Of a DNA stretch of 64,000 nt, positions 27,235 to 58,490 are shown piece by piece. A program made the position numbers and the translations under genes. The DNA comes from a virus. Below the pieces are notes generated by a model. That model made no database searches, was not told the origin of the DNA, and worked only from the letters and a program-made list of their open reading frames with translations. How positions within the stretch are numbered: the first letter of the stretch is position 1; each line of letters opens with the position of its first letter. The stretch lies in the IMG/VR virus record IMGVR_UViG_3300033233_000009, positions 1 through 64,000 of that record; one strand, given 5' to 3'.

Positions 27235-27990
27235 ATGCCCTACGCCTCTCCCAAAGACCCCCGCCGCGTCGTCTCTCAGCATCGCTACAACACGAGCGAG
27301 AAGGGGCGCAAGGCCATGCTCGCGTGGCGCAACGCCCACCGCGGGCGACTTGCTCAGTATTACAGCACCGACAAAGCGAAGGAGTGGATGCGGACCTCGC
27401 GTCAACGGATGCAGGCGGACCCGGAGCGGAAGCGCAAGAACGCCGAGGCGCAGCGTCGGTACAACCAGAGCGAGAAGGGTCGTCTCGCTTTCAAGCGAAG
27501 GGAGGCGAGCAACCGAGTGAAGTTGGGGCTCGGGCCGCCACGGCAGAAGCTCAGTCCAGAGGAGAAGAAGCAACGCCGTAAGGAATCACTGTTACGCTAC
27601 CGCGAATCCGGCAAAGCCAAGGTGTGTCAGGATCGTTTCTACGCAACCGAGTACGGTAAGCAGGCCAGCCTGGTTCGCGTCGAGCGGCGCCGATGCCTGC
27701 TGATGAGCGTTGGCGGTACGTTCACGTCCGACGAGTGGCGCGCGATGCTCCGGGCCTTCGGTTATCGCTGCACCTACTGCGGATGCGGAGGCAAGATGAC
27801 GATCGACCACGTTGTTCCGATCAGCAGCAACGGGCGTCACGAGCGTGCGAACATCGTGCCCTCCTGCCTGCGCTGCAACATCAAGAAACACAAGCACGAC
27901 CTGGCAGTAGCCTGCGCCAGACTGACGATCGATCTGCCTGCCTTTAACCAGCGGCGCGCCGCTGGCCTCGCGCGACTGGATGCCGCATGA
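27235..27990 (+). CDS. HNH (homing-type) endonuclease
   Basis: Basic helical repeats, then CTYCG...TIDHVVP.....H...NIVPSCLRCNIKK. Confidence 0.88.
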   Translation: MPYASPKDPRRVVSQHRYNTSEKGRKAMLAWRNAHRGRLAQYYSTDKAKEWMRTSRQRMQADPERKRKNAEAQRRYNQSEKGRLAFKRREASNRVKLGLGPPRQKLSPEEKKQRRKESLLRYRESGKAKVCQDRFYATEYGKQASLVRVERRRCLLMSVGGTFTSDEWRAMLRAFGYRCTYCGCGGKMTIDHVVPISSNGRHERANIVPSCLRCNIKKHKHDLAVACARLTIDLPAFNQRRAAGLARLDAA

Positions 27991-28532
27991 GCGCAACGCT
28001 ACCATTCCCTTCAGCCGCGCCGCCGCCGTTCACCGTCGGCCGGTTCTTCGGTCCACAAACCACGATCGACAAGATGCGGGAGCTGTGTCTCGGCGCGCGG
28101 GGTGAGCGGTCGATCGTGCTCTACCAGCTCACCGAGCACGTGGTGCGCTGGCTGCAACCCAAGGACTACCTCTCCGAGATTCTCGCGGTCCGCAACTTCG
28201 TCGCCGAGAAGGTCCGCTACAAGAACGACCCGCTCGCGATGGAGACGATCTCCGACCCGCAGCGGCTCGCGGAGCAGATTCTCCAGTACGGCCAGGCGAC
28301 AGCCGACTGTGACGACATCGCGCTTTTGGTCGCCACGATGGCGCGGCAGCTCGGGCGCGAAGCGGAGTTCGTCACCGTAGGCTTCGGCGCGCCCAACAAC
28401 TTCAGCCACGTGTTCGCGCGCGTGAAGGAGCCGAAGTCCGCCCGCTGGCTAGTGACCGACAGCGTTGCGGGGACAAGAGAAGCCGCGATGCTCGCGCGTG
28501 TCACGACCTGGAAGTCTTGGAAAATCGACTGA
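27987..28532 (+). CDS. Transglutaminase-like cysteine protease (candidate virion maturation enzyme)
   Basis: Cys-His-Asp triad: ADCDDIALL, FSHVFARV, WLVTD; also VRYKNDP...E. Confidence 0.8.
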   Translation: MSATLPFPSAAPPPFTVGRFFGPQTTIDKMRELCLGARGERSIVLYQLTEHVVRWLQPKDYLSEILAVRNFVAEKVRYKNDPLAMETISDPQRLAEQILQYGQATADCDDIALLVATMARQLGREAEFVTVGFGAPNNFSHVFARVKEPKSARWLVTDSVAGTREAAMLARVTTWKSWKID

Positions 28533-30132: not shown

Positions 30133-30669
30133 ATGACGAACGGACTCGGCGAATACTTCGGACCGCAGATGCAGCAGGCCGCTGCTGGCTCGCCCGCGCT
30201 CGACCCGTATCCGACGCGCACTTCCGTCCGGCAGCGGCCCGAGGCGCTGCCACCGACGAACGGGACCGGCGAGTACTTCGCGCAGAACGGCATGGGCGCG
30301 TTCGGCCCCGGCGTGATGGGAGGCATGGGCGCCTACAACATGGGCCCTGTCGGGCCGCGGCCGCGTGGCGCGTTCCGCAAGGTCGCGAGCAAGGTGTCGC
30401 CGCTCGCGGGCGCGCTCGGGGACGCTTCCGACGTGATCAGCGACGCGAAGGCGGGCGTCGTGACCGGCGTGGCCGCTGCCACGACGCTGACGGCGCTGCT
30501 GCTCGGGATGGGACTCCGGTTCGGTGCGGGCTGGATCGTCGGCAAGGCGCTCGCGCCGAGCCGTGCCGAGGAGCGCGCCTACACCTGGGGCGGCGCCATC
30601 GCGAGCGTGGTCTTCGGAAGCGTGGGGCTCGGCGTCGAGGCACTCGTCGCCCAGAACATGAAGAAGTGA
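30133..30669 (+). CDS. Membrane protein with GEYF/GLG motifs
   Basis: MTNGLGEYF, NGTGEYFAQNGMGA; C-terminal hydrophobic segments. Confidence 0.8.
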   Translation: MTNGLGEYFGPQMQQAAAGSPALDPYPTRTSVRQRPEALPPTNGTGEYFAQNGMGAFGPGVMGGMGAYNMGPVGPRPRGAFRKVASKVSPLAGALGDASDVISDAKAGVVTGVAAATTLTALLLGMGLRFGAGWIVGKALAPSRAEERAYTWGGAIASVVFGSVGLGVEALVAQNMKK

Positions 30670-30675
30670 CTACCC

Positions 30676-33600
30676 ATGCGTCTCGGTCCGCTCTCCTACC
30701 AGTCGGCGTTCGATCTGCTCAGGGCGAAGGGCTACCAGCCCGTGCCCGGTAGCTCGCGCTTCGAGGACGCCGCGGGGCGCACCGGCCGCATCGTCGAGGC
30801 CGAGGGCCGTGGCGACACGTGGTACGCCGAGGCGGAGGAGGGCGACGCGGACCTGGCGCGCGTGGGCCAGCCCTGCCCGGAGTGCGGCACGGCGATGATC
30901 GACTACGGCGCGCACGGGACGACGTGCCCCCGGTGCGCGGAGGCGGAGGAGCGCGTGCTCGCGGGCGAGTTCGACCCGGCGGTCGTGCCGGGGTACGAGG
31001 AGAACGCCGGAGGGACGTTCGCCGAGGGCTTCGCAGCGGGCCGGCGGGACCGCGAAGCGAGTCACGTCCGGCAGCTTTGCACGACGGGCACGGGCGAGCG
31101 GCCGCCCGTCGTGAAGCGCCAGGGCCGCGACTACTACCACGGGTACAAGGCAGCGGCCGAGGGCGCCACGAGCGAGCCGTCGGCCTACCTCGCGTACCGC
31201 GCGAAGCACAGAGGGATGAGCGGCATGGCGGCGAACGGACAGCCGGGCGACGAGTACGAGTCGAACGCGCGGCGCGGCGCCCAGGCCAGTAAACCTGGGC
31301 GTCACGGCACGCTGTATCTCTGGAGAGTCACCTATCGCGACACCATTGACCCCGGCTTCGGCGAAAGCTCGGTTCTCAAATGGGCGTACGACAAGCAGCA
31401 CGTGTGGGACGTGTTCAACGAACAGGTCAACGCAGAAGGCGAGTCGTGGGAGATCGTCAAGATCGATCCTGCCGCTGCGAAGGAGTACGAGGCGAACGCC
31501 TCGCGCCGCGATCCGGTCGAGACTCTGACCGACCCGGAAGCCGTGAAGGCTGTCCTGCGGAGCCTGCGCGTCAAAAGCGGCCTGACAAGCACCAGTGCGT
31601 CGCTCGGCGGAAAGTGGTCTATCCGGTTCGGGTACAACCGGGACCACTCGCAGTTCACGACGACGCTGACGCACTTCGGAGCAAGCAAGTCCATGACCGT
31701 CGGGCTGCTGCCGGAGGACGTGGAGACGCGCAGCAAAGGCCAGTGGATGACGAGCAATACCTACAGGTTGACGGAGCCGGCGATCGAACGGCTGGCCGAG
31801 CAACTGGTCCCCGCGATGCGGAACTTCGACGCGAAGTACGCGGCGGGCATGGCGGCGAACCCGGAGCGCGGGACGACCATCACAGCGGCAGAGGTCAGCG
31901 CTCTGCCGGTCGGATCGATCCTGTGGGCGGACCATCGAGGCTGGGTCGTGGTGCCCGGCGGAATCGCACCGATCAGCCTCCTCACTGAACGGGCAGGTGG
32001 GCGGGTGCCGGACGGTGAACCGGCTGGAACCATCAGCCCGAACTTCGAGGTGGTGCGCGAGGGCAACGGTAAGGTGCCGACCTACGGCACGGCGCAGCGG
32101 CACGTGATCGCCTGGTACCAGGGCCGGCGTGCGACCCCGAACCCCGTGCACCTCGCGCTCGATGGCAACTTCTCGTTCGGAATCGGAACGAAGGACGACA
32201 CGCACATGAAGAAGAACGCGGCAGCCAAGGGCGAAGTGATCTGGGAGGACAACCTGCTGACGTGGACCTCCGCCGGAGTGGACAAGCTCGGCAATCCGCG
32301 CGGTCTCAACATGACCGCGACCCCCGAGGGCCGCGTGCTCGCGCAGGACATGCTGGCGGAGCGCCAGACCGGACGCCGCCGCGGTATCCTCGCCGAGCAG
32401 GCGGACTTCTTCGACGTCGCCATGGGCAACGGCTGGCAGTACGTCCCGCCGGAGGGCATCGGTGCGCTGACCGACGCGACCATCGTCAGCATGGACGGCT
32501 TCATCGGCGACGACGGCAAGTGGTACCCGCATCCCGACGTGGAGGAGCCCGTCGTGTACGCCCACATGAACTACGAGGTCGAGGACCCGATCGAGTCGTG
32601 GGCGGAGGGCAAGCCGGTGTTCTGGCAGGCCGAGACGATCGAAATGACACCGGAGGGCCGGGCCGCTGCCCTGGAGGAGCTGGCGAGCGCCACGGGGGAG
32701 GCGTACGAGCCGAACGCGCGCAAGAACGTGACCGCGGTGATCAACGCCTTCATGGAAGGGCGCCGCCTCGGCGGGACGACCGTCAGCACGGACGGGCAGC
32801 AGATTTTCTCCTACGCGATGCCGATCGCGGGCTGGGGTGCGGGCGGCGTGGTCGTGCTGGACGCGAAGGCCGCGCCGAGCCGAACGACCGCGAGCCACAT
32901 TCGCGCGGTCCAGTCAGCGATGCCGGAGGCGCGCGTCGTGGCGGCGCTCGATCCGCCCGCCGAAGGGCATTCTGCCGGGCGAAGGCCCCTCGGCTGGGAG
33001 CCGATGCGGGCGAACGCTGCAATCGACGCTGACAAGATCAAGGCCGCGCTCAGGATGGTGCACCACGCCGAGCGTACGTCCACCAACCCTGGCGGAAAGG
33101 ACCGGGCCGTCGCCTATCGGCAGGCCGTGCGGGACTACGGGCTGAACGACGCGGAGGCCGACATCCTTGGGAACGCGCTGCATGTGTCCGCGCACGAGCG
33201 GAACGCGCGTGGCAGCAAGCCGTGGTTCGGACAGGACCAAGGCAACGTCGGGCACTGGGCCTACGCGATCAAGATCGACGGCATCGAGAACGACTTTCCG
33301 CTCAAGCCCCTGGGGCGCCAGGAGGAGTGGCCAGCGGTACGAGCCTTCCAGGCGTCCGCGCGTACCACGTGGATCAATGCCAAGCACGACCGCTCCGGCG
33401 GGATGAACAGCGTCAAGCGATTCGTCAAGTCGGAGCCACGTCCAGACCAGTTCTACGCGAAGTGGTCACCGGGCGATGACAGCTTCCAGATTTGGTACAC
33501 CGTCGGTGAGGCCGCAGAGAGTCACACCCCCAACTGGGGCCTGATGCTCGATCTGGGCGGTGTGGAACGCCGCCTCGGCGCCGACCATGTGGCCGCGGTG

Positions 33601-33759
33601 CTCGGGAGCGTCACGCCGCACGCGGTCGCGCTCGGTCTGGCGAACGACGCCCTGGACGCGAACGACGTGAAGCGGCACGAGGCGTACACGTCGCTCGCGC
33701 GCATGATCGACGACGGTGACCTCGACGACCTGATCGCGTCGGCGCGAGGGCGGGCCTGA
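30676..33759 (+). CDS. 1027-aa multidomain polyprotein-like protein punctuated by [YHM]xxN motifs
   Basis: About 11 recurrences (YEENA, MAANG, YESNA, YEANA, MAANP, ATPNP, MKKNA, YEPNA, MRANA, HERNA, HTPNW) separating dissimilar segments. Confidence 0.85.
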   Translation: MRLGPLSYQSAFDLLRAKGYQPVPGSSRFEDAAGRTGRIVEAEGRGDTWYAEAEEGDADLARVGQPCPECGTAMIDYGAHGTTCPRCAEAEERVLAGEFDPAVVPGYEENAGGTFAEGFAAGRRDREASHVRQLCTTGTGERPPVVKRQGRDYYHGYKAAAEGATSEPSAYLAYRAKHRGMSGMAANGQPGDEYESNARRGAQASKPGRHGTLYLWRVTYRDTIDPGFGESSVLKWAYDKQHVWDVFNEQVNAEGESWEIVKIDPAAAKEYEANASRRDPVETLTDPEAVKAVLRSLRVKSGLTSTSASLGGKWSIRFGYNRDHSQFTTTLTHFGASKSMTVGLLPEDVETRSKGQWMTSNTYRLTEPAIERLAEQLVPAMRNFDAKYAAGMAANPERGTTITAAEVSALPVGSILWADHRGWVVVPGGIAPISLLTERAGGRVPDGEPAGTISPNFEVVREGNGKVPTYGTAQRHVIAWYQGRRATPNPVHLALDGNFSFGIGTKDDTHMKKNAAAKGEVIWEDNLLTWTSAGVDKLGNPRGLNMTATPEGRVLAQDMLAERQTGRRRGILAEQADFFDVAMGNGWQYVPPEGIGALTDATIVSMDGFIGDDGKWYPHPDVEEPVVYAHMNYEVEDPIESWAEGKPVFWQAETIEMTPEGRAAALEELASATGEAYEPNARKNVTAVINAFMEGRRLGGTTVSTDGQQIFSYAMPIAGWGAGGVVVLDAKAAPSRTTASHIRAVQSAMPEARVVAALDPPAEGHSAGRRPLGWEPMRANAAIDADKIKAALRMVHHAERTSTNPGGKDRAVAYRQAVRDYGLNDAEADILGNALHVSAHERNARGSKPWFGQDQGNVGHWAYAIKIDGIENDFPLKPLGRQEEWPAVRAFQASARTTWINAKHDRSGGMNSVKRFVKSEPRPDQFYAKWSPGDDSFQIWYTVGEAAESHTPNWGLMLDLGGVERRLGADHVAAVLGSVTPHAVALGLANDALDANDVKRHEAYTSLARMIDDGDLDDLIASARGRA

Positions 33760-35405
33760 TGGCGCGCAGGAAGGCTGCTACTCCGCGTCGTGCGGCCCAC
33801 TCCGGCACGACGGTGTCCGGCGTGCTGTACCGCGGGCTCGAACCCGTGCTCGTTCCGATCGCCGTAACGGTCGATCCGGGGCCGCCCGGCTTGCGCGTCG
33901 CCGGCCTCACCGAGTCGCACGCGCGGGAGGCGCGGGTGCGCGTGCTGAGCGCGCTCACCGGGGTGGGCTTTGCGCCCGAGGCGCAGATCACGGTGCAGGT
34001 GCCCCAGGAAGCCGCGACCGCCGCCCGCGCGGCGGGCTACCCCGGACTCGACCTTCCGATCGCACTCGGTGTCCTGGCCAGTCACGGGCTGATCCCGGCG
34101 GAGTCGCTGACGGGCACGCTGGCGGTCGGCGAGCTGGGCCTCGACGGCGGTCTGCGCGCCGTGCGCGGTGCGGCCGTGGCCGCAGTCGGCGCCGACGAGC
34201 ACGGCGCGGAGGTGCTTCTCGTCCCCGCCTGGAACGAACCGGAGGCAACCTTTTCCGGGCACGTGCCGGTTCAGCCGCTCCGCGACCTCGCGGAAGCCGT
34301 GGCCTACATGCAGGAGCGACCCGTCCCGCGCATGCGTGTGCATCGCGAGTTCGCGCCGTGCGGCGGGCAGCCAGTGGCCAGCGATCCGGGTCTGCCTCCC
34401 GAAGCGCTGGTGGCGGTCGAGGAAGGCCGCAACATTCTGCTCGTCGGGCCACCCGGTTCGGGGAAGACAATGGCCGCGCGGTACATCCTCGGGCTGCTAC
34501 CGCCGCTGTCCGCGGACGAGGCGACGGACCTGACGCTGATCTACAGCGTCGCCGGGCTGCTTCAAGGTAACTACGCCTGCGCGCGGCCGTTCCGTGCGCC
34601 GCACCACTCGGTAAGCGAGGCGGGGCTGGTCGGTGGCGGCAACCCGCCGCGGCCCGGCGAGGTGACGCTGGCGCACCGCGGGGTGCTGCTGCTGGACGAG
34701 CTGTCGGAGTTCAGCCGAACCAGCATCGAATCGCTCGCGGGCGCGCTGCGCCACGAGCAGGTGACGCGGGTGAAGTACCCGGCGGCCCCCCTGGTGGTCG
34801 TGGGCGCGGCCAACCCGTGCCCGTGCGGGTACCTCGGCAGCACGCGGGCGTGCCGGTGCAGCGACCGGGCTCGGGCGCTGCACGACGAACGGCTCAACGC
34901 GCTGGCCGAAGCCCTGGGCATGGAGCGGTTCGACATTGGGGCGCTCACCGTCAAGGGAATGCTGGGCGTGCACGCGCCGAACGCGCGGCCCGAGTCAGCC
35001 ATTGCGAAGCGGTGGATGCGGGACAGCCTTGCGAACGACATCCACCACGAGTTCGTGGACGGCATCACCGGCGAGGTCAACCTGACCAAGCTGGCGGAGG
35101 AGTGCGCCATCGCGCTCGGGCACACCGAGTGGCTCGACGACGAGACGCATCCGGTGTGGGACTGGGCCATCGAGGTGACGGACGCGGGCGGCTACGCGCG
35201 CAACGCGAGCGCGCGCTTCGTGAACTGGGACCTCTCGCGGACGCCATCCGGTCTGCTCGAAATCTCCTTGGCCAACGGCGCCGTGCTCTACTACGAGGTG
35301 GGGCCGGCGGACTGGCGCAACACGGGCGGCAGCCGAGTGAGCCCCGCGGAGGAGACGACGATCGACCGCTTCCTGGCGTACGCGCTGGCGCAGGGGGCGG
35401 GCTGA
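33759..35405 (+). CDS. YifB/ComM-like (Mg-chelatase-related) AAA+ ATPase, C-terminally replaced
   Basis: DLPIALGVL, GELGLDG.LR.VRG, GPPGSGKTM, RPFRAPHHS, PGEVTLAHRGVLLLDE, ANPCPCGY; then HAPNA- and YARNA-delimited extra domains. Confidence 0.88.
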   Translation: MARRKAATPRRAAHSGTTVSGVLYRGLEPVLVPIAVTVDPGPPGLRVAGLTESHAREARVRVLSALTGVGFAPEAQITVQVPQEAATAARAAGYPGLDLPIALGVLASHGLIPAESLTGTLAVGELGLDGGLRAVRGAAVAAVGADEHGAEVLLVPAWNEPEATFSGHVPVQPLRDLAEAVAYMQERPVPRMRVHREFAPCGGQPVASDPGLPPEALVAVEEGRNILLVGPPGSGKTMAARYILGLLPPLSADEATDLTLIYSVAGLLQGNYACARPFRAPHHSVSEAGLVGGGNPPRPGEVTLAHRGVLLLDELSEFSRTSIESLAGALRHEQVTRVKYPAAPLVVVGAANPCPCGYLGSTRACRCSDRARALHDERLNALAEALGMERFDIGALTVKGMLGVHAPNARPESAIAKRWMRDSLANDIHHEFVDGITGEVNLTKLAEECAIALGHTEWLDDETHPVWDWAIEVTDAGGYARNASARFVNWDLSRTPSGLLEISLANGAVLYYEVGPADWRNTGGSRVSPAEETTIDRFLAYALAQGAG

Positions 35406-35407
35406 AG

Positions 35408-36295
35408 ATGCCGCGCGTTCGCGTCAATCTGGCGGGGCAACGGTTCGGCAAATGGACCGTCCAGACGTATACCGGCGGCGGCCGGTGGACCTGTCTATGC
35501 GACTGCGGGCAGACGAGAGCCCTCGCGAGTACAACACTCAGCCAAGGGCGCTCCAAGTCCTGTGGCTGCCGCAGGGGCGAGCTGACGAGGCTGCGGAACC
35601 TGACGGCGAACCCAGCGCGGCGTACTCCGCTGGAGAGCCTCGTGGGACGGAGTTTCGCGCGACTCACCGTTATTGGATACGTGAAGGGGGCGAAGTGGCG
35701 GTGCGTCTGCAAATGCGGACGCGAGAGCGTCGTACGCGGTGTTCATTTGAAGAACGGTGCGGTGCGAAGCTGCGGTTGTTACATGATGGAGGTTGCCCTC
35801 GCGAGGGGCGAGCGGCTGCGTGTACCGGAGACGATCAGGAAGCAGCGTGATAAAACGCGCGGAGAGAGGTACCGCGCCACGCAGAGGTTTGCCAAGACTC
35901 GGGCCGAGTACGAGGCGTCGGAGCAAGGAAAGGCCAACCGCAGGAGAGGGTATCTGTCGCCGAAGGCAAAAGAAGCGGCGCGCCGTCGCCGCGCTTTGCT
36001 GGCGGGTTCCGACTCTTGCCTGACAGAGGCGCAGTGGCAGGCCATCGTTGGTCTGTGGGGCTGCTGTGCCTACTGCCTGGAACAAACGAAAGTGACCCAG
36101 GATCACATCGTACCGATCAGCAAACAAGGCTCCGGTGACGCTTGGAATGTGGTCCCCGCGTGCCCCCGCTGCAACAGCGCGAAGCACGTATCGGACGTGG
36201 AAGTGTTCCTGAGACGCAAAGGGCGTGACTCTGTGCAGTTCTGGGACCGCGTCCGAGAAGTTGCTCACGCTATCGAAATGATGGAGGCTGCGTAG
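35408..36295 (+). CDS. HNH homing endonuclease with two Cys-rich N-terminal repeats
   Basis: Two copies of (L.G..F..(W/L)TV...C.C.CG...SCGC); CAYC..TQDHIVP...NVVPACPRCN; lower GC. Confidence 0.88.
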   Translation: MPRVRVNLAGQRFGKWTVQTYTGGGRWTCLCDCGQTRALASTTLSQGRSKSCGCRRGELTRLRNLTANPARRTPLESLVGRSFARLTVIGYVKGAKWRCVCKCGRESVVRGVHLKNGAVRSCGCYMMEVALARGERLRVPETIRKQRDKTRGERYRATQRFAKTRAEYEASEQGKANRRRGYLSPKAKEAARRRRALLAGSDSCLTEAQWQAIVGLWGCCAYCLEQTKVTQDHIVPISKQGSGDAWNVVPACPRCNSAKHVSDVEVFLRRKGRDSVQFWDRVREVAHAIEMMEAA

Positions 36296-36298
36296 CTC

Positions 36299-37339
36299 AT
36301 GTCCTACGGAATCCCGAATCCATACGTCGCGACAACGCACCCGTACCCCTCTCCCGCCACAGGCGGAAAGGGTGGTAGCTGGATCCGCCCCGTACACACG
36401 TTTCCTTACATGCGGTCCGTCCAGAGCGTATTCCTCCCCAGTCATTTCAACGACGGCAACCCGGCGCTCCGCGGGCTCGGTGACGTGAACGCCGCGAACG
36501 GCGTGTTCGGCACGTCGCAGGGTGGCGGCGGCGTGTTCGGGCCGTCGCTGTACGGGCTCGGGGACACAGGCGAGGACATCGACGCCATCGCGGCGTTCAT
36601 CCTGAACAGTCGCACCACCTCGCCGGCTGCCTTCGACGTCCAGACCCACTTCCGCGCCTGGTACAACGGGCTGTACTTCTGGCAGAAGGACGACGACGCG
36701 AAGGCGAAAGCAGAGAACTACAGGAGACAGTTCATCGACGCGAACGCGGTCGTCAGCAAGGCTACGGCGCCGACCAGCACCGCCCCGGCGCCGTCGTTCA
36801 TGCCGATGATCAACGACCCCAACGCGCCGGTCGCGACGAAGGGCCCGACTGCGCCTGCGCTCACGGGCCAGGCCAGTGGCCAGAGTGGCGACCCGCGCGT
36901 GAGCGAGCTTCAGGGCTACCTGAACCGTGTGCTCAAGACGGCGGGGCTGACCGCGCTTGACCAGGATGGCAAGCTCGGCGCGAAGGGCTGCGGCGCCATC
37001 GCGTGGTACCGCGGGCCGGGACGCTCCCTGGCAAGCGCGAGCACCGCGGCGGCGATCGACGCGAACCTCGGTGCGATGGGCGCGATCTACGCCTCGGTCT
37101 GCGCGGTCAAGGGCTCGACCGCGCCGGGCGGCGGGGGCGCCACGACGGTGAAGGCGCCTTCCGTGTACGTGGCGACGCCTCCGGTGGCGACGCCTCCGGT
37201 GGCGACGCCGCCCGTGGCACCTCCGCCGGAGGAGCCCGCGAAGGCGAGCGCCATGGGCGCGGGCACGTGGGCGATGATCGGTGGCGGATTGCTTGCCGTC
37301 GGGCTCGCGGTCGTGGGAAAGAAGAAGGGCTGGTTCTGA
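36299..37339 (+). CDS. Tail-anchored protein with a peptidoglycan-binding-like domain
   Basis: GLGD x2; VSELQGYLN...DGKLGAKGCGA; VATPP repeats; TM followed by KKKGWF. Confidence 0.8.
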   Translation: MSYGIPNPYVATTHPYPSPATGGKGGSWIRPVHTFPYMRSVQSVFLPSHFNDGNPALRGLGDVNAANGVFGTSQGGGGVFGPSLYGLGDTGEDIDAIAAFILNSRTTSPAAFDVQTHFRAWYNGLYFWQKDDDAKAKAENYRRQFIDANAVVSKATAPTSTAPAPSFMPMINDPNAPVATKGPTAPALTGQASGQSGDPRVSELQGYLNRVLKTAGLTALDQDGKLGAKGCGAIAWYRGPGRSLASASTAAAIDANLGAMGAIYASVCAVKGSTAPGGGGATTVKAPSVYVATPPVATPPVATPPVAPPPEEPAKASAMGAGTWAMIGGGLLAVGLAVVGKKKGWF

Positions 37340-44623: not shown

Positions 44624-45217
44624 ATGAGCTACCACGTGAACCCGATCGCCCGGAGCCTGCCTCGCCTCGGCGCTCGGTCCGTCGGAGGGCTCGGTACGGT
44701 GGCCCCGCCTCCGGTGCTCCACGCGGCGCCGCGCCCGCTCACCGCCGCGGACTGGGCGAACATCGCGGCCTACGCGAAGGCGGTCAAGGCGGCCGAGGCA
44801 GCGAAGGTGACCGCGCCGCCCCCGCCCACGACCGTGCCGGTGGTGTCGCTCGCGACGCTGGTCAGCAAGCTCCAAGCGAAGGGCGCGACCCCCGACGAGG
44901 TCGGCTACTTCCAGGCGTGCATGACCGACAAGCTCGGCGACAAGCCGCCCACGGCGTGCGAAACGGAGGCTCGGAGCCTGGCAAAGCTCTCGGCGGAGGG
45001 GCTCGCGTTCTACAAGTCGTGCGCGAGCCAGCGCGCCGCGGACATGCCGGTCCGCACGCAGCACTCCGCGTGCTACGGCGAGGCGCTCAAGATCGCGAGC
45101 GGCGGCGCGGCGCCGGATGGCGGTGGCGCGACGACGACCGCCGGCATGGGCACCACGAAGTGGCTGCTGATCGGCGGCGTCGCGGTGGCGCTCTACTTCC
45201 TCGTGATCCGCAGGTAG
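44624..45217 (+). CDS. Tail-anchored protein
   Basis: GGLG; PPVLHAA..DWANIAAYAKAVK; four Cys; AGMG followed by TM. Confidence 0.8.
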   Translation: MSYHVNPIARSLPRLGARSVGGLGTVAPPPVLHAAPRPLTAADWANIAAYAKAVKAAEAAKVTAPPPPTTVPVVSLATLVSKLQAKGATPDEVGYFQACMTDKLGDKPPTACETEARSLAKLSAEGLAFYKSCASQRAADMPVRTQHSACYGEALKIASGGAAPDGGGATTTAGMGTTKWLLIGGVAVALYFLVIRR

Positions 45218-45860: not shown

Positions 45861-47891
45861 ATGGCCAGAACAATCGGCAAGGCGTTCAAGATCGGCAAGA
45901 AGGACGTGAAGTCCTACGGCTACGCCACGCCGAACCGCCGCGCGGGTGGCCGCATGACGGCGAACGCCGGGGTGACGGCCATCGCGGCCATCAACGGCCC
46001 CGGGGCACACGCTCGGCACCACCGGGGCGTGAGCGCGCGGGCGGCCATGAACGGTCTGTCGCGCGAGGAGCGCCTCGCGCGGGCTCGCAAGATCACCGGC
46101 GCTGACCGGGCGGCGTTCGCGCGCCGCATGGGTGCCGCCACGAAAACCAGAGGAACAACCATGCGAACGAACGCCAGTCCAGCGCAGATCGCGGCCGCAC
46201 GCCGCAACATCAAGAAGGCCATCGCTGCCCGTCGGGCAGGCGGTCATCGCCCGAACCTGCGTCCGATGCGGTTCGGTCGCCCGCTGGGCCGGCCCGGGCT
46301 GCGTCCGAACACCTGGCCCGGCGAGGTCCGTCGGCACGAGCACGCCGCGGCGCGCGGCTGGGCTCTGCGTACCGGGTCCCGTCCGCCGTTCGCCTCGACG
46401 CTGGGCACGGCGGCCAGGCGACGGAAGAAGAAGAAGCACACGGCCAACAGCCGGAGGAAGAAGACCATGAGAACCCATCGCCGGAACTTCAGCGCGAAGC
46501 AGCGGGCTGCCGCGCTCCGCAACCTCCGCAAGGCACGTGCCGCGCGGAAGCACCGCCCGAACGCCCGGAAGACGCGGAGCCGCCGGAAGGCGCACCGCCG
46601 CAACGGGCTGGTGTCGAACAAGCGGCGCGTCGCGCGGCGCAGGAGCCACCGCAAGAACTTCAGCGCGAAGCAGCGGGCCGCCGCGCTCCGCAACCTGCGC
46701 AAGGCGCGCGCGGCGCGGAAGCACCGCCCGAACGCCAAGCGGCGTACGGCTCGCCGGAGCCACCGTCGCAACGGCCTGGTCTCGAACAAGCGGCGCACGC
46801 ACCGCCGGAACTTCAGCGCGAAGCAGCGGGCTGCCGCGCTCCGCAACCTCCGCAAGGCACGTGCCGCGCGGAAGCACCGCCCGAACCGGAAGCACCGCCG
46901 GAACACGCACCGCAAGGCGCACCGCCGGAGCCACCGCCGCAACGGCCTGGTCTCGAACGGAGCATTCCGTCGCAACCAGTTCCTCGCGACGGCCAAGGCG
47001 GTCCTCAAGATCGGCGCGATCACCACGGCGGGCTTCGTGGCGCACAAGGCCGTCACCAAGGTCTTCACCGACCAGATCCTCGACCGCATCCTCGGGTCGA
47101 GCGGCGCGGCCTCCCCGGCCAAGCCGGCGGCGGCGAGCGGGCTCGAAGCGCTCCAGCCCTACCGGAGCATCATCGGCGGCGCCGCAGTCGCGGCGGCCGG
47201 CGTGTTCCTGGCCAACAAGGTGGTCAAGGACACGCAGACCAAGATGTTCCTCACGGCCGGCATCGCGACCTCGCTCGTTCACTCGATCGCGGTCGTCGCG
47301 CTGGCGAAGCTCGCTCCGTCGTACTCCGGCTACCTGTCCGGCGACGGAACGGCAGCCAACATCTCGGCCATGTACGGCTTCGGTGCGGGCGCGAGCATCA
47401 TGCCCGAGTACCACCCGATCAACGGCCTGGGCGAGTACTTCGCGCAGAACGGCCTGGGCGAGTACTTCGCGCAGAACGGCCTGGGCGAGTACTTCGCGCA
47501 GAACGGCCTGGGCGCGTACACGAGCAACCCCGACCTGATGCAGGCGGCGGCGGGCTACGGCGTGGTCGAGAACCAGAACAGCAACATCGTGGACCCCGGT
47601 GGTGACCTCGACGCGCAGCTTTCGATCGCGGAAGCGGCGGCGGGCGTCGGCGCGGTGCCCTACGAGGCGGCAGCCGGCTTCGGCCGGGTGCAGCCGTTCG
47701 AGGCGAGCGCGGGCTACGGCGGCTTCGGTGCGGTGAGCACCGTGCCGCCCACGGCCGACACCTGGATCCCCGGCTCGTCGCACGGCCAGCTCTGGGCAGG
47801 CACCCGCGACATCACCGCGGGCCAGTCGGCCCACGAGATGGTGAGCGCCGGGATCATGGAGACCGGCGGCAACCAGGGGGTCTTCGGCTGA
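45861..47891 (+). CDS. Arg/Lys-rich membrane-anchored putative genome-condensing (core) protein
   Basis: Extremely basic N-terminal half with long repeats, three hydrophobic helices, and an acidic/Gly-rich C-terminus with NGLGEYFAQ repeats; directly upstream of the candidate MCP. Confidence 0.85.
   Translation: MARTIGKAFKIGKKDVKSYGYATPNRRAGGRMTANAGVTAIAAINGPGAHARHHRGVSARAAMNGLSREERLARARKITGADRAAFARRMGAATKTRGTTMRTNASPAQIAAARRNIKKAIAARRAGGHRPNLRPMRFGRPLGRPGLRPNTWPGEVRRHEHAAARGWALRTGSRPPFASTLGTAARRRKKKKHTANSRRKKTMRTHRRNFSAKQRAAALRNLRKARAARKHRPNARKTRSRRKAHRRNGLVSNKRRVARRRSHRKNFSAKQRAAALRNLRKARAARKHRPNAKRRTARRSHRRNGLVSNKRRTHRRNFSAKQRAAALRNLRKARAARKHRPNRKHRRNTHRKAHRRSHRRNGLVSNGAFRRNQFLATAKAVLKIGAITTAGFVAHKAVTKVFTDQILDRILGSSGAASPAKPAAASGLEALQPYRSIIGGAAVAAAGVFLANKVVKDTQTKMFLTAGIATSLVHSIAVVALAKLAPSYSGYLSGDGTAANISAMYGFGAGASIMPEYHPINGLGEYFAQNGLGEYFAQNGLGEYFAQNGLGAYTSNPDLMQAAAGYGVVENQNSNIVDPGGDLDAQLSIAEAAAGVGAVPYEAAAGFGRVQPFEASAGYGGFGAVSTVPPTADTWIPGSSHGQLWAGTRDITAGQSAHEMVSAGIMETGGNQGVFG
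46476..46960 (+). repeat. Three imperfect coding repeats (periods 171 and 153 bp)
   Basis: HR(R/K)NFSAKQRAAALRNLRKARAARKHRPN...HRRNGLVSN starting at 46476, 46647 and 46800. Confidence 0.9.
47421..47514 (+). repeat. Perfect 27-bp coding tandem repeat, about 3.5 copies
   Basis: AACGGCCTGGGCGAGTACTTCGCGCAG (NGLGEYFAQ). Confidence 0.95.
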
Positions 47892-48109: not shown

Positions 48110-48868
48110 ATGGCAAAGGTCGTTTCCATTCGCGAGCGAGTGCACCAGCCCTTCTGGGACAGTCTCGTTCGCACTGCCGGCTTGACCGCCGGTGCCCTCA
48201 ACGACACCACGTCGCTGTTCACCTCGAACGGCGCGCGGTCCGAGGCCACCACCAACCTGATCAACGGCAGCACGCTGCCGTCCGACCAGTCGCACGTGGT
48301 GCTCGCGCTCCGCGTGTTCACGTGGTTCCGCAACCCGATCCTCCGGGTCCCGGGCGGCGCGCCCGGCTCGGGCGAAGTCTCCGAGAACGGCGACTACGGC
48401 ACGCTCACCCCGTGGCTCGTCGGCGGTCCCGGCTTCGGCCAGGCTCCGGCGAACATCGAGGACATCTACCGCCTGCACTGGCAGACGGAGGAGCAGCTCC
48501 ACTGGAGCTTCGGAACGGGCCTCAAGAACAGCATCGACAATGTTCCGACGTGGTACTTCCCGACGGGAGGGGGCATCTCGGGCGACATGGGCGCCGCAAC
48601 CGACCTCATTCACTGGCAGAACAGTGGATGGGACGGGCACAGCGGGATCCTGCGGCTCGCCCGCGCGATCCTGATTCCGCCCCGCCAGAACATCCTCTGC
48701 CAGGCCAAGATTTTCGCCCTCCCCGACGCGGGGCAGGCGCAGACCTTCCTGACGTCGCAGGGGTCGCGGAACATGCTGTCCCTCAAGGACAACCTGAACG
48801 CGGTGGACGCGGCGCAGAAGTGCATCACGTTCGTGTTCGACGGTCTGTTCTCCCGAGACGTTCAGTAG
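48110..48868 (+). CDS. Candidate major capsid protein (single jelly-roll type)
   Basis: Soluble, beta-rich, 252 aa; QPFWDS..LF..TNL..G.TLP...VLALRV and LARAILIPPRQN patterns; GGAG RBS; flanked by hairpins. Confidence 0.55.
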   Translation: MAKVVSIRERVHQPFWDSLVRTAGLTAGALNDTTSLFTSNGARSEATTNLINGSTLPSDQSHVVLALRVFTWFRNPILRVPGGAPGSGEVSENGDYGTLTPWLVGGPGFGQAPANIEDIYRLHWQTEEQLHWSFGTGLKNSIDNVPTWYFPTGGGISGDMGAATDLIHWQNSGWDGHSGILRLARAILIPPRQNILCQAKIFALPDAGQAQTFLTSQGSRNMLSLKDNLNAVDAAQKCITFVFDGLFSRDVQ

Positions 48869-48938: not shown

Positions 48939-49009
48939 CGCTCCCGAGCGGGGGCAGGTCTGATGCGTACGGCGCGCTCCGCCGGTACTCCCTTGTGGAG
49001 GTAGCTACG

Positions 49010-49972
49010 ATGAATCCCATGCTTCAGCAGTTGATGGACAGCGCGGGCCTCGCGATCAAGCAGTCGCGTGACGCGCTGGCGGCCTCGCAGCAGATCGGCA
49101 ATCAGGTCAGCGGGGTGCGCCAGGAAATGGCGCGGCTCGCGCAGAACGCAGCCGATCTCCAGTCGGCGATCGGTCGCTTGCAGGTACAGCGGGCGAACGG
49201 CGACCCGGGCATCCAGCGGGTCGAGAACATCCCCGGGCGGCGGGTGCCGTTCGACCTGTTCGTGGACATCCCCATCGGGGACAACGTGACGAGCGTCCAG
49301 CAGGGCACGATCACGATCAGCCAGGAGGGGCCGTTCGTGGCCGTCTCCCGGATGGCGGTCTTCCTCTCGACCTACCAGTTCCAGGTGGTCACGGACCCGA
49401 ACCAGCCGAACAGCAAGGCGACGTTCGCCGGGCGGAGCTTCGGAAGGCAGCGGCCGATCCACAGCGTGTGGGACCTGAACGACGGGCTGCCGCGCACGCA
49501 GGTCGTGATGGCCGTCGCGATGCCGGGCACGGGCGCCCCGCAGGTGATCAGCCCGTCGAACGCGAGCCCGTTCCGCACGATGGAGGCGGACTACCGGATC
49601 CGGTTCGAGAACGCGGGGTCGAGCTTCCCGCGGTCGAACATCGAAATCCCGAGCGCGTTCTGGACGCGGGGGATGAACGATCCGTTCGAGCTGGCGGCGC
49701 TCGACGTGTTCGAGCGGGGCGAGGTGATGACCTTCCAGGTGCTCCCGCTCCACCCGAACAACCCGCCCTTCGGCAACGTCGCCGGCTTCGGCGCTCCGAA
49801 CCCGGCCTACCCGTTCGTGCAGAGCGGCTGGGATGCGGTGGAAGGCGTCGTGGACGCGAACAACCCCGCTGCCGGCACCACCGATCCGGTGACGCGCGTG
49901 GCGAGCGGCATCCTCACGATCGGCTTCCACGGCTACCGGATCGTCCAGCCTGCGGGCGCGGGCCCGTACTGA
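49010..49972 (+). CDS. Candidate second capsid protein (N-terminal coiled coil plus beta-rich domain)
   Basis: GGAGG RBS; GTITISQEGPFVAV, LDVFERGEVMTFQV, LTIGFHGYRI strands. Confidence 0.55.
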   Translation: MNPMLQQLMDSAGLAIKQSRDALAASQQIGNQVSGVRQEMARLAQNAADLQSAIGRLQVQRANGDPGIQRVENIPGRRVPFDLFVDIPIGDNVTSVQQGTITISQEGPFVAVSRMAVFLSTYQFQVVTDPNQPNSKATFAGRSFGRQRPIHSVWDLNDGLPRTQVVMAVAMPGTGAPQVISPSNASPFRTMEADYRIRFENAGSSFPRSNIEIPSAFWTRGMNDPFELAALDVFERGEVMTFQVLPLHPNNPPFGNVAGFGAPNPAYPFVQSGWDAVEGVVDANNPAAGTTDPVTRVASGILTIGFHGYRIVQPAGAGPY

Positions 49973-54456: not shown

Positions 54457-55077
54457 ATGGCGGACCTGCTCGAAACCCTCGGCCGCGTCGTCCTGACCTT
54501 CCAGTCCGCTCCGCAGGGCGTGCCGGGCAGGATCTGGGACGAGCTGCGTCCGTGGTTCGGGCGGCTCGTGGTGAGCGCGGCGCCGAAGTGGCTACCGCGC
54601 CTGTCGTTCGGCTTCGCGTGCTCGGTGCCGCATCCGAACGGCGCGGCCTGTCCGCGGCCCGCCATCGCGGCCTGCGATGTGTGCGGCCAGCCCTGCTGCC
54701 TCGACCACGCGCGCATCGACCAGTACGGCGACGCGATCTGCTACCTCTGCTGCATCGAGGCGATCCGGCGGAAGCAGGCCGAGCGCGCCGGGGAGCCAGC
54801 GCCGGGGCACGGTCACGCCCAGGGGGGCCATGCCGGGCACGGGCATGGGCCGCAGCCGACCCCTGAAAAGGAGCTGGCCTGGGCCCGCAAGACGCTCGGC
54901 GTGAAGAAGGGCGCGGACTGGGAAGAAGTGCGCGCGGCGCACCGTAGACTCTCCGCGAAGTGGCACCCCGATCGCCATCAGGGCGCGGGCTACCAGGCAG
55001 CCGAGGACCGGTTCAAGCAGGTACAGAGAGCGTTCGACTTGCTCACGAAGGAACGTGAGCGAAAGGAAGCGGCGTGA
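54457..55077 (+). CDS. J-domain (DnaJ-like) protein with a Cys-rich Zn module
   Basis: LGV....WEEVRAAHRRLSAKWHPDR...FKQVQRAFDLL; CDVCGQPCCLDH...CYLC. Confidence 0.85.
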   Translation: MADLLETLGRVVLTFQSAPQGVPGRIWDELRPWFGRLVVSAAPKWLPRLSFGFACSVPHPNGAACPRPAIAACDVCGQPCCLDHARIDQYGDAICYLCCIEAIRRKQAERAGEPAPGHGHAQGGHAGHGHGPQPTPEKELAWARKTLGVKKGADWEEVRAAHRRLSAKWHPDRHQGAGYQAAEDRFKQVQRAFDLLTKERERKEAA

Positions 55078-55798
55078 TGGCGAAGCGAGCAACCAAGGCG
55101 AAGCGGGCCCCCGCTGACTTCGACGACGAGGACGCGGTGCTCAAGGAAGTTGCGAAAGACCTCGGCGAGGACGCCGACGATCTGAAGATCAAGGAGGACG
55201 GTGGCCTCGGGAGTTTCGGCGAGGGCACGGTCTACCGGATCAGCACGCCACGCGGCGGCCGCGAGTGGTGCGTCGTGCAGGACCACGACACCGCCTACAA
55301 GCTGGCCGTCGCAGTGGTCACTCAGGATCTGGAGAGCGAGCCGGAAATCTTCAACAAGGACTTTCTCGAATCGCACATCGACAAGATGAAGCTCGCTCGC
55401 GAGCTGGAATCGGACCTGCGCAGCATGGCCGAAGACGACGTGCGCGAATGGACGCGGACGACTTCTGGCGCGAGGCGGGGCGCGAGGGCATGGAGGTGCC
55501 GGAAGCCGAGGTGGACGAGGACGGCAACGAGGAGGATCTGCGCGACCCGACCGAGAACGAGCTGAGCGAGCTGGCCGAGAAGCGCGTCGAGGACCAGCTA
55601 CGCGATCCGATGCAGTACCTCTCCGACATTTACGGCGACAAGGAAGCGGTCGAGCAGGCGATCAAGATCGCGGGCATCGACGTGGACGCTGCCGCCGAGG
55701 ACGCCGTGGACACCGACGGCTGGGAGCACTTCCTGTCGCGCTACGACGGGCACAGCCACGAGACGGCGAGCGGGTTCGTCTACTGGCGGGAGAACTGA
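55077..55798 (+). pseudogene. Acidic hypothetical protein with an apparent 1-nt deletion at about 55447
   Basis: The frame ending ...AEDDVRE joins the frame starting MDADDFW if one A is inserted (GAATG to GAAATG); C-terminus DGWEHFLSRYDG. Confidence 0.65.
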
Positions 55799-57326: not shown

Positions 57327-58490
57327 ATGGACTACTACCGCGTCGGCTACGCACAGTCCCCGCTCGTTCCCATGGGGATGGGCTCCTCGCCCGACGGCCT
57401 CGGCGCGTACTTCCAGACGACGTACCAGCAGCCGATCCGCGCGGTGCACGGCGGCACGAGCACGGTGGCGGCCTACCAGCCGATCGATGGGCTCGGCGCG
57501 TACTTCGCGACGACGTACCAGCAGCCGATCCGTCCGGCGCAAGGCGGCGCGAGCATCATCGCGGACTACAAGCCGATCGACGGGCTCGGGGAGCTGACGC
57601 CCGCCCAGCGCAGCGCAGTCGCCTGGGCCTCGCTCCTCGGCTTCGTCGGGTGGGGCAGCGGGCTCCTGGCGCGGGGCCCCGTCTACGCCCGCAAGCGCGG
57701 CCCGTGGGTACCGCTGGCCGGCGCGGCGGCCGGCGTGGCGGTGGGCTACGCGATCGGCACGCGGCGGGCTACCGCCCCGCCTGCGCCCACGGCTGGCCTT
57801 GGCGCGTGCCTCCCGTGCATGGCAGCGGCCGCGGGCCTCGGTGCGGATGCGGTGCCGGCGGCGACGCCCTCCGCACTCAGCAAGCCATGGGTCAAGGTCG
57901 CGCTCGGTGTCGGCGCCGTCACGCTCGCCTGGTACACCGTGCCGGCGTTCCGCAAGCTGTGGGGTCCCGGTGGCGCGCTCGCGAAGAACAAGCGGCACCG
58001 GCGGAACGCGCACACGGGCGGACCCGACGATCACGTTTACGCGCCAAGCGGGATGCGTGGCTGGGATGCCTGCGCGAGGTGCGGTTACGCCCGCGGACAG
58101 CACCTCACTGCTGCCGAGCTAAAGCGACTCCGCTCGCTCACGCCGAACCGCCGCCGCAGGCACCGGAAGAACGCGAAGTGGTCGGGCAAGGCGAAGCGGA
58201 GCCTGCCGGACACCAGCTTCCTCTACGTTGCGCCCGGCGGCCACGCGCGCATCGAGGGCGGCAAGAAGGTCACCATCCCGCGGAGCCTGCGGAAGTTCCC
58301 GTACCGCACGGCGGCGGGCAACATCGACCTGCCGCACCTGCGGAACGCCATCGCGCGCATCCCGCAGTCGAACCTGCCGGAGAGCCAGCGCACGCTGCTC
58401 CAGGCGAAGGCCCGCGCCATCCTCGCCGAGCACGGCGGGTACAAGCGCGCGCGCAAGGCGGCGGGCGGCGTGCTCCGACAGGCGGCGTGA
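57327..58490 (+). CDS. 3-TM protein with DGLGAYF repeats and a basic C-terminal domain
   Basis: DGLG x3; TMs; HRRN/HRKN motifs; the segment LPDTSF...RKFPY...IDLPHLRNAIARI is recalled from phage head-associated small domains. Confidence 0.8.
   Translation: MDYYRVGYAQSPLVPMGMGSSPDGLGAYFQTTYQQPIRAVHGGTSTVAAYQPIDGLGAYFATTYQQPIRPAQGGASIIADYKPIDGLGELTPAQRSAVAWASLLGFVGWGSGLLARGPVYARKRGPWVPLAGAAAGVAVGYAIGTRRATAPPAPTAGLGACLPCMAAAAGLGADAVPAATPSALSKPWVKVALGVGAVTLAWYTVPAFRKLWGPGGALAKNKRHRRNAHTGGPDDHVYAPSGMRGWDACARCGYARGQHLTAAELKRLRSLTPNRRRRHRKNAKWSGKAKRSLPDTSFLYVAPGGHARIEGGKKVTIPRSLRKFPYRTAAGNIDLPHLRNAIARIPQSNLPESQRTLLQAKARAILAEHGGYKRARKAAGGVLRQAA

Follow-up and report, generated by a model that had tools for sequence, protein, structure and literature searches.

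Two adjoining genes of an uncultured virus, referred to here as ORF1 (30676-33759, 1027 amino acids) and ORF2 (33759-35405, 548 amino acids), carry a series of unrelated protein cassettes joined by short asparagine-ended tags. They are open reading frames (ORFs) on the forward strand of the window, the 64-kb stretch of DNA analyzed in this work, which is the first part of the linear, 124,597-bp IMG/VR virus record IMGVR_UViG_3300033233_000009. We propose, with a probability of roughly 0.6, that the virus, a large one that infects bacteria, uses the two ORFs to encode a cargo polyprotein of hypervariable content and that this polyprotein is cut after Asn during assembly. A uniform tag ending in Asn is present at every cassette boundary and moves together with the cassette; a basic core-like protein encoded in the same window carries the same tag. 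The G+C content of the window is about 70%. The window's own genome (G000) has a CheckV completeness estimate of only 69%, while a related genome, G001, is complete (179,401 bp). The start codon of ORF2 sits on the final base of the ORF1 stop codon, an overlap of one nucleotide (TGATG).

An earlier examination of the letters of the window without database searches (the sequence-only reading) had proposed that [YHM]xxN motifs divide ORF1 into dissimilar segments of up to about 165 amino acids. A regular-expression search found motif starts at 30994, 31225, 31255, 31486, 31849, 32206, 32704, 33004, 33193 and 33523, all of them as proposed. The motif claimed at 32131 is present in a degenerate form, ATPN489↓P (the arrow marks the joint), in which N489 and P490 are invariant in 18/18 relatives. 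Both motifs assigned to the next gene, at 34971 and 35193, were also recovered, and they introduce the second and third cassettes of ORF2. Two additional matches, at 31747 (MTSN361) and 33136 (YGLN824), were not considered junctions because both lie inside cassettes that are spanned by free-standing homologues. The ORF1 segments delimited in this way are indeed dissimilar and measure 110, 77, 10, 77, 121, 94, 25, 166, 100, 63, 110 and 74 amino acids. The patchy codon usage noticed at that time is real but mild, with the G+C content at third codon positions (GC3) of the individual cassettes ranging from 0.78 to 0.955.

The number of motifs in ORF1 is far above that expected from its composition. 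Nine [YHM]xxN[AGSP] matches were found, compared with 0.94±0.95 in composition-preserving shuffles, and none of 5000 shuffles reached nine. In the whole 124.6-kb genome, the motif is concentrated in four ORFs, with observed versus expected numbers of 9 and 0.97 (ORF1), 2 and 0.34 (ORF2), 10 and 1.1 (45861-47891), and 3 and 0.19 (57327-58490). These four ORFs hold 24 motifs in 2638 residues (0.91 per 100 residues), and 120 other ORFs hold 17 in 26,685 (0.064 per 100 residues). The remaining 133 ORFs, with 17 observed and 12.3±3.4 expected, are at chance level and show no avoidance. As is the case for the substrates of prohead proteases, the motif is shared by several proteins, the four ORFs of the late block, and the same was observed in G001.

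The sequence-only reading had also stated that the same motif saturates a core-like protein, which proved correct. The 676-amino acid product of 45861-47891 (forward strand) and its G001 orthologue have 10 motifs each. The protein consists of about 380 basic residues with HRRN, HRPN and HRKN, followed by three hydrophobic segments and NGLGEYFAQ repeats. The basic part is built of near-exact repeats (HRRNFSAKQRAAALRNLRKARAARKHRPN..HRRNGLVSNKRR), the NGLGEYFAQ repeat occurs four times, and the GLGEYF peptide is also found in the products of 30133-30669 and 57327-58490. The last of these, a membrane protein of 387 amino acids (forward strand), has a basic C-terminal part with HRRN↓A and HRKN↓A; the remaining match, HLRNAI, seems to belong to a folded domain.

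The cassettes of ORF1, all on the forward strand, are as follows. Cassette 1 (30676-31005, residues 1-110, ending in YEEN110) includes an N-terminal domain (residues 1-58) and a Zn-ribbon (residues 64-89). The ribbon matched zf-FPG_IleRS just below the cut-off in a Pfam search in which ORF1 had no family above it, and ORF1 had no match in PHROGs. The N-terminal domain, family B, is common to 12 relatives and was modeled with a predicted local distance difference test score (pLDDT) of 83-89 over residues 1-40. Cassette 2 (31006-31236, residues 111-187, FAEGF..YYHGYKAA, ending in MAAN187) belongs to family F, with nine proteins, and BLAST blocks at this cassette start at residues 106-115. Between two motif matches is a 10-residue spacer (31237-31266, residues 188-197, ending in YESN197). 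Cassette 3 (31267-31497, residues 198-274, KPGRHGTLYLW.., ending in YEAN274) has five free-standing homologues of 68-106 amino acids. Cassette 4 (31498-31860, residues 275-395, LRVKSGL..ETRSKGQW.., ending in MAAN395) has 15 of about 110 amino acids, all of which run across the internal MTSN361. Cassette 5 (31861-32142, residues 396-489, LPVGSILWAD.., ending in the degenerate ATPN489) has seven and is also found fused within unrelated long proteins. After the 25-residue unit described below, cassette 7 (32218-32715, residues 515-680, GNGW..VPPEDIGALTDA..VYAHMNY, ending in YEPN680) represents family G, with nine proteins that always end in YE[SPA]N or YSPN, and has 21 free-standing homologues. 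Cassette 8 (32716-33015, residues 681-780, ARKNVTAVINAF.., ending in MRAN780) has 15 and was modeled with a pLDDT of 86-90, with a dip at residues 677-683. Cassette 9 (33016-33204, residues 781-843, ending in HERN843 and including the internal YGLN824) also occurs in P0009, P0026 and P0049. Cassette 10 (33205-33534, residues 844-953, ARGSKPWFG.., ending in HTPN953) has eight free-standing homologues. The chain terminates with a helical domain (33535-33759, residues 954-1027, then stop) of family A, with 14 proteins and a pLDDT of about 92.

The most conserved part of the family is the universal mini-cassette of 25 amino acids, PVHLALDGNFSFGIGTKDDTHMKKN (32143-32217, residues 490-514), which has a junction on either side. 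Residues N489, P490, H492, L495, G497, S500 and G504 are invariant in 18/18 relatives. By pattern search, the unit was found in 23 of 25 family members, in some of them in tandem, and one more member has a variant that the pattern misses. It is the only constant element, because the N-terminal domain is missing from several members. In G000 and G001 the pattern search located it solely in the polyprotein. The unit may be a loading signal, or else a peptide that docks the processing enzyme or acts as its cofactor.

ORF2 is a second polyprotein of three cassettes, since its first cassette is found in frame between motifs in relatives. This first cassette (33759-34982, residues 1-408, ending in HAPN408) is a ComM/YifB-like ATPase, with a Lon-like N-domain (PF13541, ChlI, 6.8e-18, residues 35-159) followed by a Mg-chelatase-type AAA+ domain (PF01078, Mg_chelatase, 7.9e-50, residues 218-393) that has the Walker A sequence GPPGSGKT at residue 230; about 140 more residues follow the two Pfam domains. 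The second cassette (34983-35204, residues 409-482, AIAKRWMRD..THPVWDWAIE, ending in YARN482) recurs inside P0007, P0011, P0026 and P0058 and, in loci L038-L041, in a second ORF behind the polyprotein. The third, delimited by the motif search, extends to the stop codon (35205-35405, residues 483-548). While the ComM cassette of the window is a separate ORF that starts M-ARRKAA, that of P0008, P0012, P0013, P0020 and G001 is part of the polyprotein frame and has a motif on each side (..N↓ARRRG ... MRRN↓AKGD..). Loci L038-L042 do not have the cassette. Behind the polyprotein, L038-L041 carry a second ORF composed of motif-delimited cassettes, and L042 has cassette O as an ORF of its own. In the polyprotein-internal copies of G001 (L004:3278-6553), P0008, P0012 and P0013, the Walker A sequence is GPPGAGKM, with Met in place of the window's Thr, and these copies may be inactive as ATPases.

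Relatives of ORF1 were collected by a word-indexed search, which gave 19 proteins of 585-1231 amino acids, and by an exhaustive phmmer search of 1.84 billion representatives, which gave 396 hits at E<=1e-3. Splitting at [YHM]xxN produced recurring unit lengths of 25, 74-84, 93-100, 110, 145-151, 158-166 and 403-413 amino acids. Clustering of the cassettes of 25 proteins at 70% mutual coverage resulted in 25 recurrent families and 44 singletons, and all 25 architectures differ; single-linkage clustering at 50% coverage over-merged the cassettes. Each family retains an end tag of its own, such as YE[SPA]N, MALN, MTGN, M[KR][KR]N or H.PN, and the blocks of homology to ORF1 detected by BLAST start and stop at motifs. 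The proposal that ORF1 is a plug-in system is strongly supported. In the 25 relatives the Asn motif is the exact point at which cassettes change order, arrive or disappear; cassettes also exist as free-standing genes, and gene boundaries coincide with the junctions.

With regard to stand-alone or reshuffled homologues of the segments, which had been suggested as a check, 7 of the 12 ORF1 cassettes were found to have free-standing homologues of 70-170 amino acids, and the cassette order was reshuffled in the 25 relatives. The analysis of free-standing homologues covered the best 150 of the 396 phmmer hits, with small hits defined as proteins of at most 170 amino acids that match in a single stretch. 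Each of the 73 small hits maps by its midpoint to one cassette. Sixty-eight remain within the cassette bounds; the other five, apparently fragments of polyprotein genes, overrun a cut by more than three residues. Among the free-standing homologues of cassette 8, all 15 that were aligned have MRKN as their first residues, exactly at P1', the start Met replacing the Ala of ..YEPN↓ARKN... One of them, P0090, is probably encoded on the same contig as polyprotein P0018, which does not include cassette 8 (both contigs are 137,047 bp). The modular cassette reading is strongly supported by these comparisons.

The gene order around the polyprotein is also maintained. It consists of a transglutaminase-fold gene, three genes for small membrane proteins, the polyprotein, and membrane proteins with peptidoglycan-binding domains, and it is kept in all five related loci that reach far enough upstream; two further loci end short of it. 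A tblastn search of 50,697 phage records and 72,556 plasmids with ORF1 gave no match, and scanning genome contigs with ORF1 revealed no relative. Viral contigs gave none when scanned with ORF1 alone and one locus, L004, when scanned with alignment A2.

The junctions themselves are the most conserved positions of the family. N489 and the pair N680-A681 are invariant, and N514 is present in at least 90% of 18 relatives; outside the 25-residue unit, the invariant residues of the family alignment are the junction pair N680-A681. Around all Asn residues of the 18 relatives, position P4 is enriched in Met (6.1-fold), His (3.1-fold) and Tyr (2.0-fold), and position P1' in Ala (2.2-fold). Among 160 motif sites in 25 proteins, where P1 is Asn in every case by construction of the search expression, P1' is Ala in 82, Gly in 19, Pro in 17 and Ser in 8. 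Removal of the initiator Met is described as taking place after A, G, S and P (PMC10052503). Because P1' is mostly one of these four, the cut products and the free-standing versions would share a mature N-terminus. A site for DNA-level recombination at the joints was considered and rejected, as conservation does not extend beyond the codons AAC-GCN, and the constraint must therefore act on the protein.

A prediction of the sequence-only reading was that domain boundaries in an AlphaFold model would fall at the motifs. This was assessed by pLDDT only and was borne out in part. The AlphaFold2 model of ORF1, built from an 18-row alignment, has a mean pLDDT of 56.9 and a predicted TM-score of 0.27, with folded blocks at residues 1-50, 113-178, 286-393, 520-676, 684-755 and 957-1027. 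Ten of the 12 [YHM]xxN Asn residues are in stretches with a pLDDT below 50, and narrow dips at residues 97-112, 391-399 and 677-683 coincide exactly with motifs. Since 41% of the chain is of low confidence, the model is supportive rather than decisive regarding joints at the motifs.

Two of the ORF1 cassettes are found in other uncultured viruses with different joints. The cassettes at residues 198-274 and 844-953 are also part of multi-cassette proteins joined by V-x-E↓[A/S/T]-R, here called Glu-type, namely P0021, P0022, P0033, P0034, P0038, P0040, P0050 and those of 13 IMG/VR loci (L014-L026). The first cassette is present in P0022, P0038 and P0040, and the second in P0021, P0033, P0034 and P0050, where it is preceded by ..E↓AR. 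Other proteins (P0051, P0052 and P0060) are joined by R-x-x-N↓P; a scan for proteins of this Asn-Pro type (alignment A8) found none. The same cargo format is thus written with lineage-specific punctuation. The Glu-type joints were seen in other lineages only, and the junction Asn of the window family is invariant. V-x-E↓[A/S/T] is the kind of site cut by the proteases of two phages, T4 gp21, which is described as cutting L/I-X-E sites (PMC9026906), and SPN3US gp245, described as cutting A-X-E with V at P4 and S at P1' (PMC10052503). In four complete Glu-type genomes, G002-G005 (109-125 kb), there was no Pfam match to S77, HK97-capsid or Terminase_6N, nor was a homologue found of the window's basic core protein or of its 325-amino acid conserved protein. 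All four have other Transglut_core proteins, in open frames of 262-545 amino acids. The rejected candidates include 2A-like ribosome skipping at the N↓P joints, which do not have the NPGP core; 2A-like skipping is also not known from bacteria.

These observations can be accommodated in the following model. About a dozen unrelated cassettes of 25-166 amino acids, together with the ComM-like ATPase of about 410, would be translated as one chain, each with a [Y/H/M]-x-x-N tag of its own at the C-terminus, in most cases before A, G, S or P. Recruitment of the whole chain to the site of processing would be the task of the conserved end domains or of the 25-residue mini-cassette. There, a site-specific endopeptidase would cut after Asn, probably during particle assembly, releasing cassettes whose N-termini match those of the free-standing homologues, and the same enzyme would chop the basic core-like protein into short DNA-binding peptides. 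New cargo would be gained by in-frame insertion of a domain that ends in a tag. Endoproteolysis after Asn is the step that we consider reasonably probable. It is possible, with odds that we place somewhat below even, that the assembling particle is where processing occurs and that the products enter the host with the DNA.

The alternative that best survives these data is that the chain is never cut. It would then be a single multi-domain polyvalent protein, and [YHM]xxN-A would be a preferred inter-domain joint, for example a helix N-cap or a hinge that tolerates domain swaps. Polyvalent proteins with 2-15 unrelated domains are described as common in phages, and the N4 virion RNA polymerase as packaged unprocessed (PMC5512222). 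Several helices of the ORF1 model begin right after an Asn (such as H684-693 after N680), the motif occurs at chance frequency in other proteins, and Pfam scans did not identify an Asn-specific protease. A passive hinge, however, leaves unexplained the preference for M, H or Y at P4, the 10 copies of the tetrapeptide packed into an unrelated basic protein in two genomes, the 10- and 25-residue units with a motif at each end, and the exact P1' starts of free-standing homologues. We consider this alternative unlikely.

Much less credible is a role of the motif, instead of being a cut site, as a repeated signal for docking or loading that binds a capsid, membrane or DNA-associated partner, with its multiple copies increasing the avidity for incorporation. 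In T4, unrelated proteins are brought into the head by short peptides, the capsid-targeting sequences (PMC9026906), and the motif's occurrence is limited to a small number of late-block proteins. Nonetheless, docking tags need not mark every domain boundary nor travel with the C-terminus of a cassette, and the corresponding motif of the Glu-type lineages is of the kind proven to be a cut site in T4 and SPN3US.

The joints could also be cut without a protease, by an attack of the Asn side chain on the carbonyl of the same residue by way of a succinimide, the reaction of asparagine peptide lyases. Asn-X bonds are the cleavage sites of known self-cleaving coat proteins of viruses and of FlhB/YscU proteins. 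P1 is always Asn here, P1' includes P, G, A and S, and such a reaction is compatible with the failure of Pfam scans to show an Asn-specific protease. On the other hand, the Asn lyases known so far need a folded catalytic environment around a single site, whereas these sites are in low-confidence linkers between unrelated domains, and the Met that can occupy P4 has no catalytic side chain. Autocatalytic or spontaneous cleavage is, in our estimation, a shade more improbable still than the docking signal. Chance or compositional bias, for which the abundance of Ala, Arg and Gly at 70% G+C could be invoked, is already refuted for practical purposes by the shuffling results, the invariance of the motif Asn and the homology blocks bounded by motifs.

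If the polyprotein is cut by an endopeptidase, as we favor, the candidates are few. The late block of the window includes one protease-like gene, 27987-28532 (forward strand), which encodes a transglutaminase-fold enzyme of 181 amino acids (Pfam Transglut_core, PF01841, 1.3e-7) and is located four genes upstream of the polyprotein in the five related loci that extend that far. It has 295 homologues, and at least 120 of them share 55% identity or more. As expected for a transglutaminase-like cysteine peptidase, it combines a papain-like core with a Cys-His-Asp triad, and C108, H141 and D158 are invariant in 30/30 homologues. Its AlphaFold model has a pLDDT of 89.6, and Foldseek retrieved 3isr, 3kd4, 4u65_E and 2f4o with E-values of 4e-5 to 3e-4. 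The fold neighbors comprise putative Cys proteases (3isr and 3kd4), LapG (4u65_E and 4fgq), PNGase and PeiW/PeiP. A phmmer search of PDB sequences with the protein found nothing. A close orthologue is present in the Asn-type G001 (E 7.9e-89), and a strong match is present in none of the four Glu-type genomes, the best being 9e-5 in G002. LapG is a site-specific endoprotease that resembles the enzyme in size, fold and Cys-His-Asp triad. The identity is only about 17% and the TM-score about 0.46-0.55. The predicted complex of the enzyme with ORF1 residues 476-525 scored 0.01, where the mark is 0.32, and is evidence neither way. The proposal that this enzyme is the protease is tentative. The co-occurrence of the same cassettes with Glu-type sites in other viruses suggests, from sequence, that the joint motif tracks the processing enzyme of each lineage.

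A second candidate is encoded outside the window, at 118508-121033 of the genome (reverse strand, L003:14508-17033). It is an 841-amino acid DUF2201_N metallopeptidase-VWA protein that carries LAGLIDADG and intein-splicing domains; the G001 orthologue has 453 amino acids and is apparently devoid of the intein. The gene adjoins that of a P-loop ATPase (121795-123060) with the Walker A sequence GGVGEGKT and no Pfam match, which we would guess to be MoxR-like. The Lon-like domain of ComM was rejected as the protease. The positions that we take to be those of the Lon Ser-Lys dyad hold D and R in ORF2, and the cassette is missing from L038-L042, which keep the motif.

Several results weigh against cleavage of a cargo polyprotein after Asn. 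Because it is not depleted from other proteins (17 versus 12.3), the tetrapeptide is not by itself sufficient to define a site. The ORF1 model is poor, with a low mean pLDDT and a large low-confidence fraction. The Pfam scans identified no Asn-specific protease, and the only protease-like genes are the transglutaminase-fold and DUF2201_N ones. The fold neighbors of the former include the cell-wall endoisopeptidases PeiW/PeiP as well as PNGase, and because these score similarly to LapG, its substrate could be the cell wall instead of the polyprotein. Neither G000, at its 69% completeness, nor the complete G001 has a match to PF05065 (HK97 capsid) or PF03237 (Terminase_6N), and S77 (PF03420) has no match in G001. 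An hmmscan of about 60 G000 ORFs found no S77/S78 protease or HK97-capsid family, of which divergent versions could escape. The assignment of the gene block to the virion is purely contextual. Finally, the "effector" role of the cassettes is a guess, since searches of Pfam, PHROGs, the PDB and the ESM Atlas gave no function. Pfam recognized no family in 10 hit proteins, which include seven free-standing cassette homologues and cover seven ORF1 cassettes, and PHROGs none in 10 free-standing homologues that represent six. Foldseek with the whole ORF1 model found nothing in the PDB at E<=1e-3, the model being too poor to say more, and profile searches of PDB sequences with the alignments of cassettes 7 and 8 found no relative. 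In the ESM Atlas, cassette 7 had no usable match, and the only matches of cassette 8 were small hypothetical proteins of viruses, which scored 0.89 and so fell short of the 0.9 mark; in one of these clusters, 11% of the members have DUF8033.

Other genes of the window deserve mention. Directly behind ORF2 is an HNH endonuclease gene (35408-36295, forward strand) with a GC3 of 0.73, compared with about 0.9 in its neighbors. The copies found in relatives are only 31% identical and are located elsewhere in the module (L038:10725-11495 and L004:10079-10783), and the gene looks like a mobile homing-type insertion. Two tail-anchored membrane proteins (36299-37339 and 44624-45217, forward strand) start with MSYGIPN↓P and MSYHVN↓P; these starts, of which there are only two cases, may be very short Asn-ended N-terminal propeptides. 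The most conserved proteins between G000 and G001 are those of 48110-48868 and 48995-49972 (forward strand), with 93% and 89% identity. Neither has a Pfam or PHROG family, and they are candidates for the capsid proteins of this group of viruses. The 163-amino acid product of 55074-55565 (forward strand) shares about 50% identity with ORFs of six Glu-type loci (L020-L025), and its gene is among the few common to the Asn-type and Glu-type groups. The preceding gene, 54457-55077 (forward strand), ends in a DnaJ domain (Pfam 7.9e-14).

Polyproteins as an expression strategy are normally tied to RNA viruses and, among DNA viruses, to a few large ones of eukaryotes. Cleavage at the joints would make this such a strategy in a bacterial double-stranded DNA virus, with a new protease specificity and a naturally occurring plug-in format into which small proteins of any kind could be loaded. 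With about 25 or more families, the cassettes already constitute a catalogue of small viral proteins that evolve fast, the sort of pool where anti-defense proteins tend to be found. If the joint motif tracks the enzyme, enzyme-site pairs would be predictable from sequence alone. The tag and the 25-residue unit could become tools for the packaging of foreign proteins, as the T4 capsid-targeting sequence did. At the speculative end is a scenario that we deem improbable as a whole, an undescribed lineage with genomes of 125-180 kb, probably tailless and membrane-containing. Its protease, perhaps LapG-like and specific for Asn at P1 and Met, His or Tyr at P4, a preference that no phage is reported to show, would unpack the hypervariable polyprotein into around a dozen small injected effectors and cut the core protein into adenovirus-like DNA-condensing peptides, with the 25-residue peptide, freed by two cuts, as a loading signal or cofactor.

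Adenovirus core precursors are cut by a viral cysteine protease, and the basic core proteins are trimmed to peptides. African swine fever virus makes the polyproteins pp220 and pp62 (PMC10308890). The likeness of both to the present case would lie in a double-stranded DNA virus of large size with an internal membrane and a polyprotein or precursor of structural and core components cut at a short motif within the particle by a viral cysteine protease. They differ in being eukaryotic viruses with Gly-Gly-X sites, clan CE proteases and fixed structural products, whereas here the content is hypervariable, P1 is Asn, and a membrane-containing tailless particle is at most presumed.

Closer parallels are found in phages. 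In T4 (gp21, IPI-III and Alt) and SPN3US (gp245), as covered in the accounts cited, a motif of three or four residues likewise extends across core, scaffold and cargo, cleavage liberates small, unrelated proteins after their loading into the head, and the set of cargo proteins varies between relatives (PMC9026906, PMC10052503). One of them, T4 IPI, counters restriction and is ejected together with the DNA (PMC9026906). In those phages P1 is Glu and the cargo is encoded by separate genes with one propeptide each, whereas here P1 is Asn, up to 12 units are chained, and Pfam shows no S77, HK97-capsid or Terminase_6N match.

The polyvalent proteins of Iyer et al. (2017) comprise unrelated domains in one polypeptide of a mobile element and show extensive mosaicism; they are predicted to be delivered with the invading DNA and processed into separate domains, which are largely known enzymes, mainly by embedded zincin-like metallopeptidase domains (PMC5512222). 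ORF1 is like them in the many unrelated domains per chain and the mosaicism among relatives. The 12 segments of ORF1 and three of ORF2, in an IMG/VR virus record, fit their description as 2-15 unrelated domains encoded by a phage or conjugative element. ORF1 differs in that Pfam and PHROGs found in it no embedded peptidase or known effector domain, nor any of the polyvalent hub domains (zincin-like metallopeptidase, SNF2-methylase, ArdC-N, MuF and others), and in the uniform Asn-ended tetrapeptide at every joint, which is shared with the virus's basic core-like protein. The paper also names 40 novel domains, with which the cassettes may overlap (PMC5512222). The open-access literature searched describes no Asn-delimited cassette polyprotein or Asn-specific phage maturation protease. 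The sequence-only reading had considered this the strongest candidate for an undescribed system, a claim that is not sustained insofar as its kind is known. By analogy, the two ORFs are best regarded as a variant of polyvalent proteins and of the protease-processed head cargo of the T4 and SPN3US type, with Asn replacing Glu at P1.

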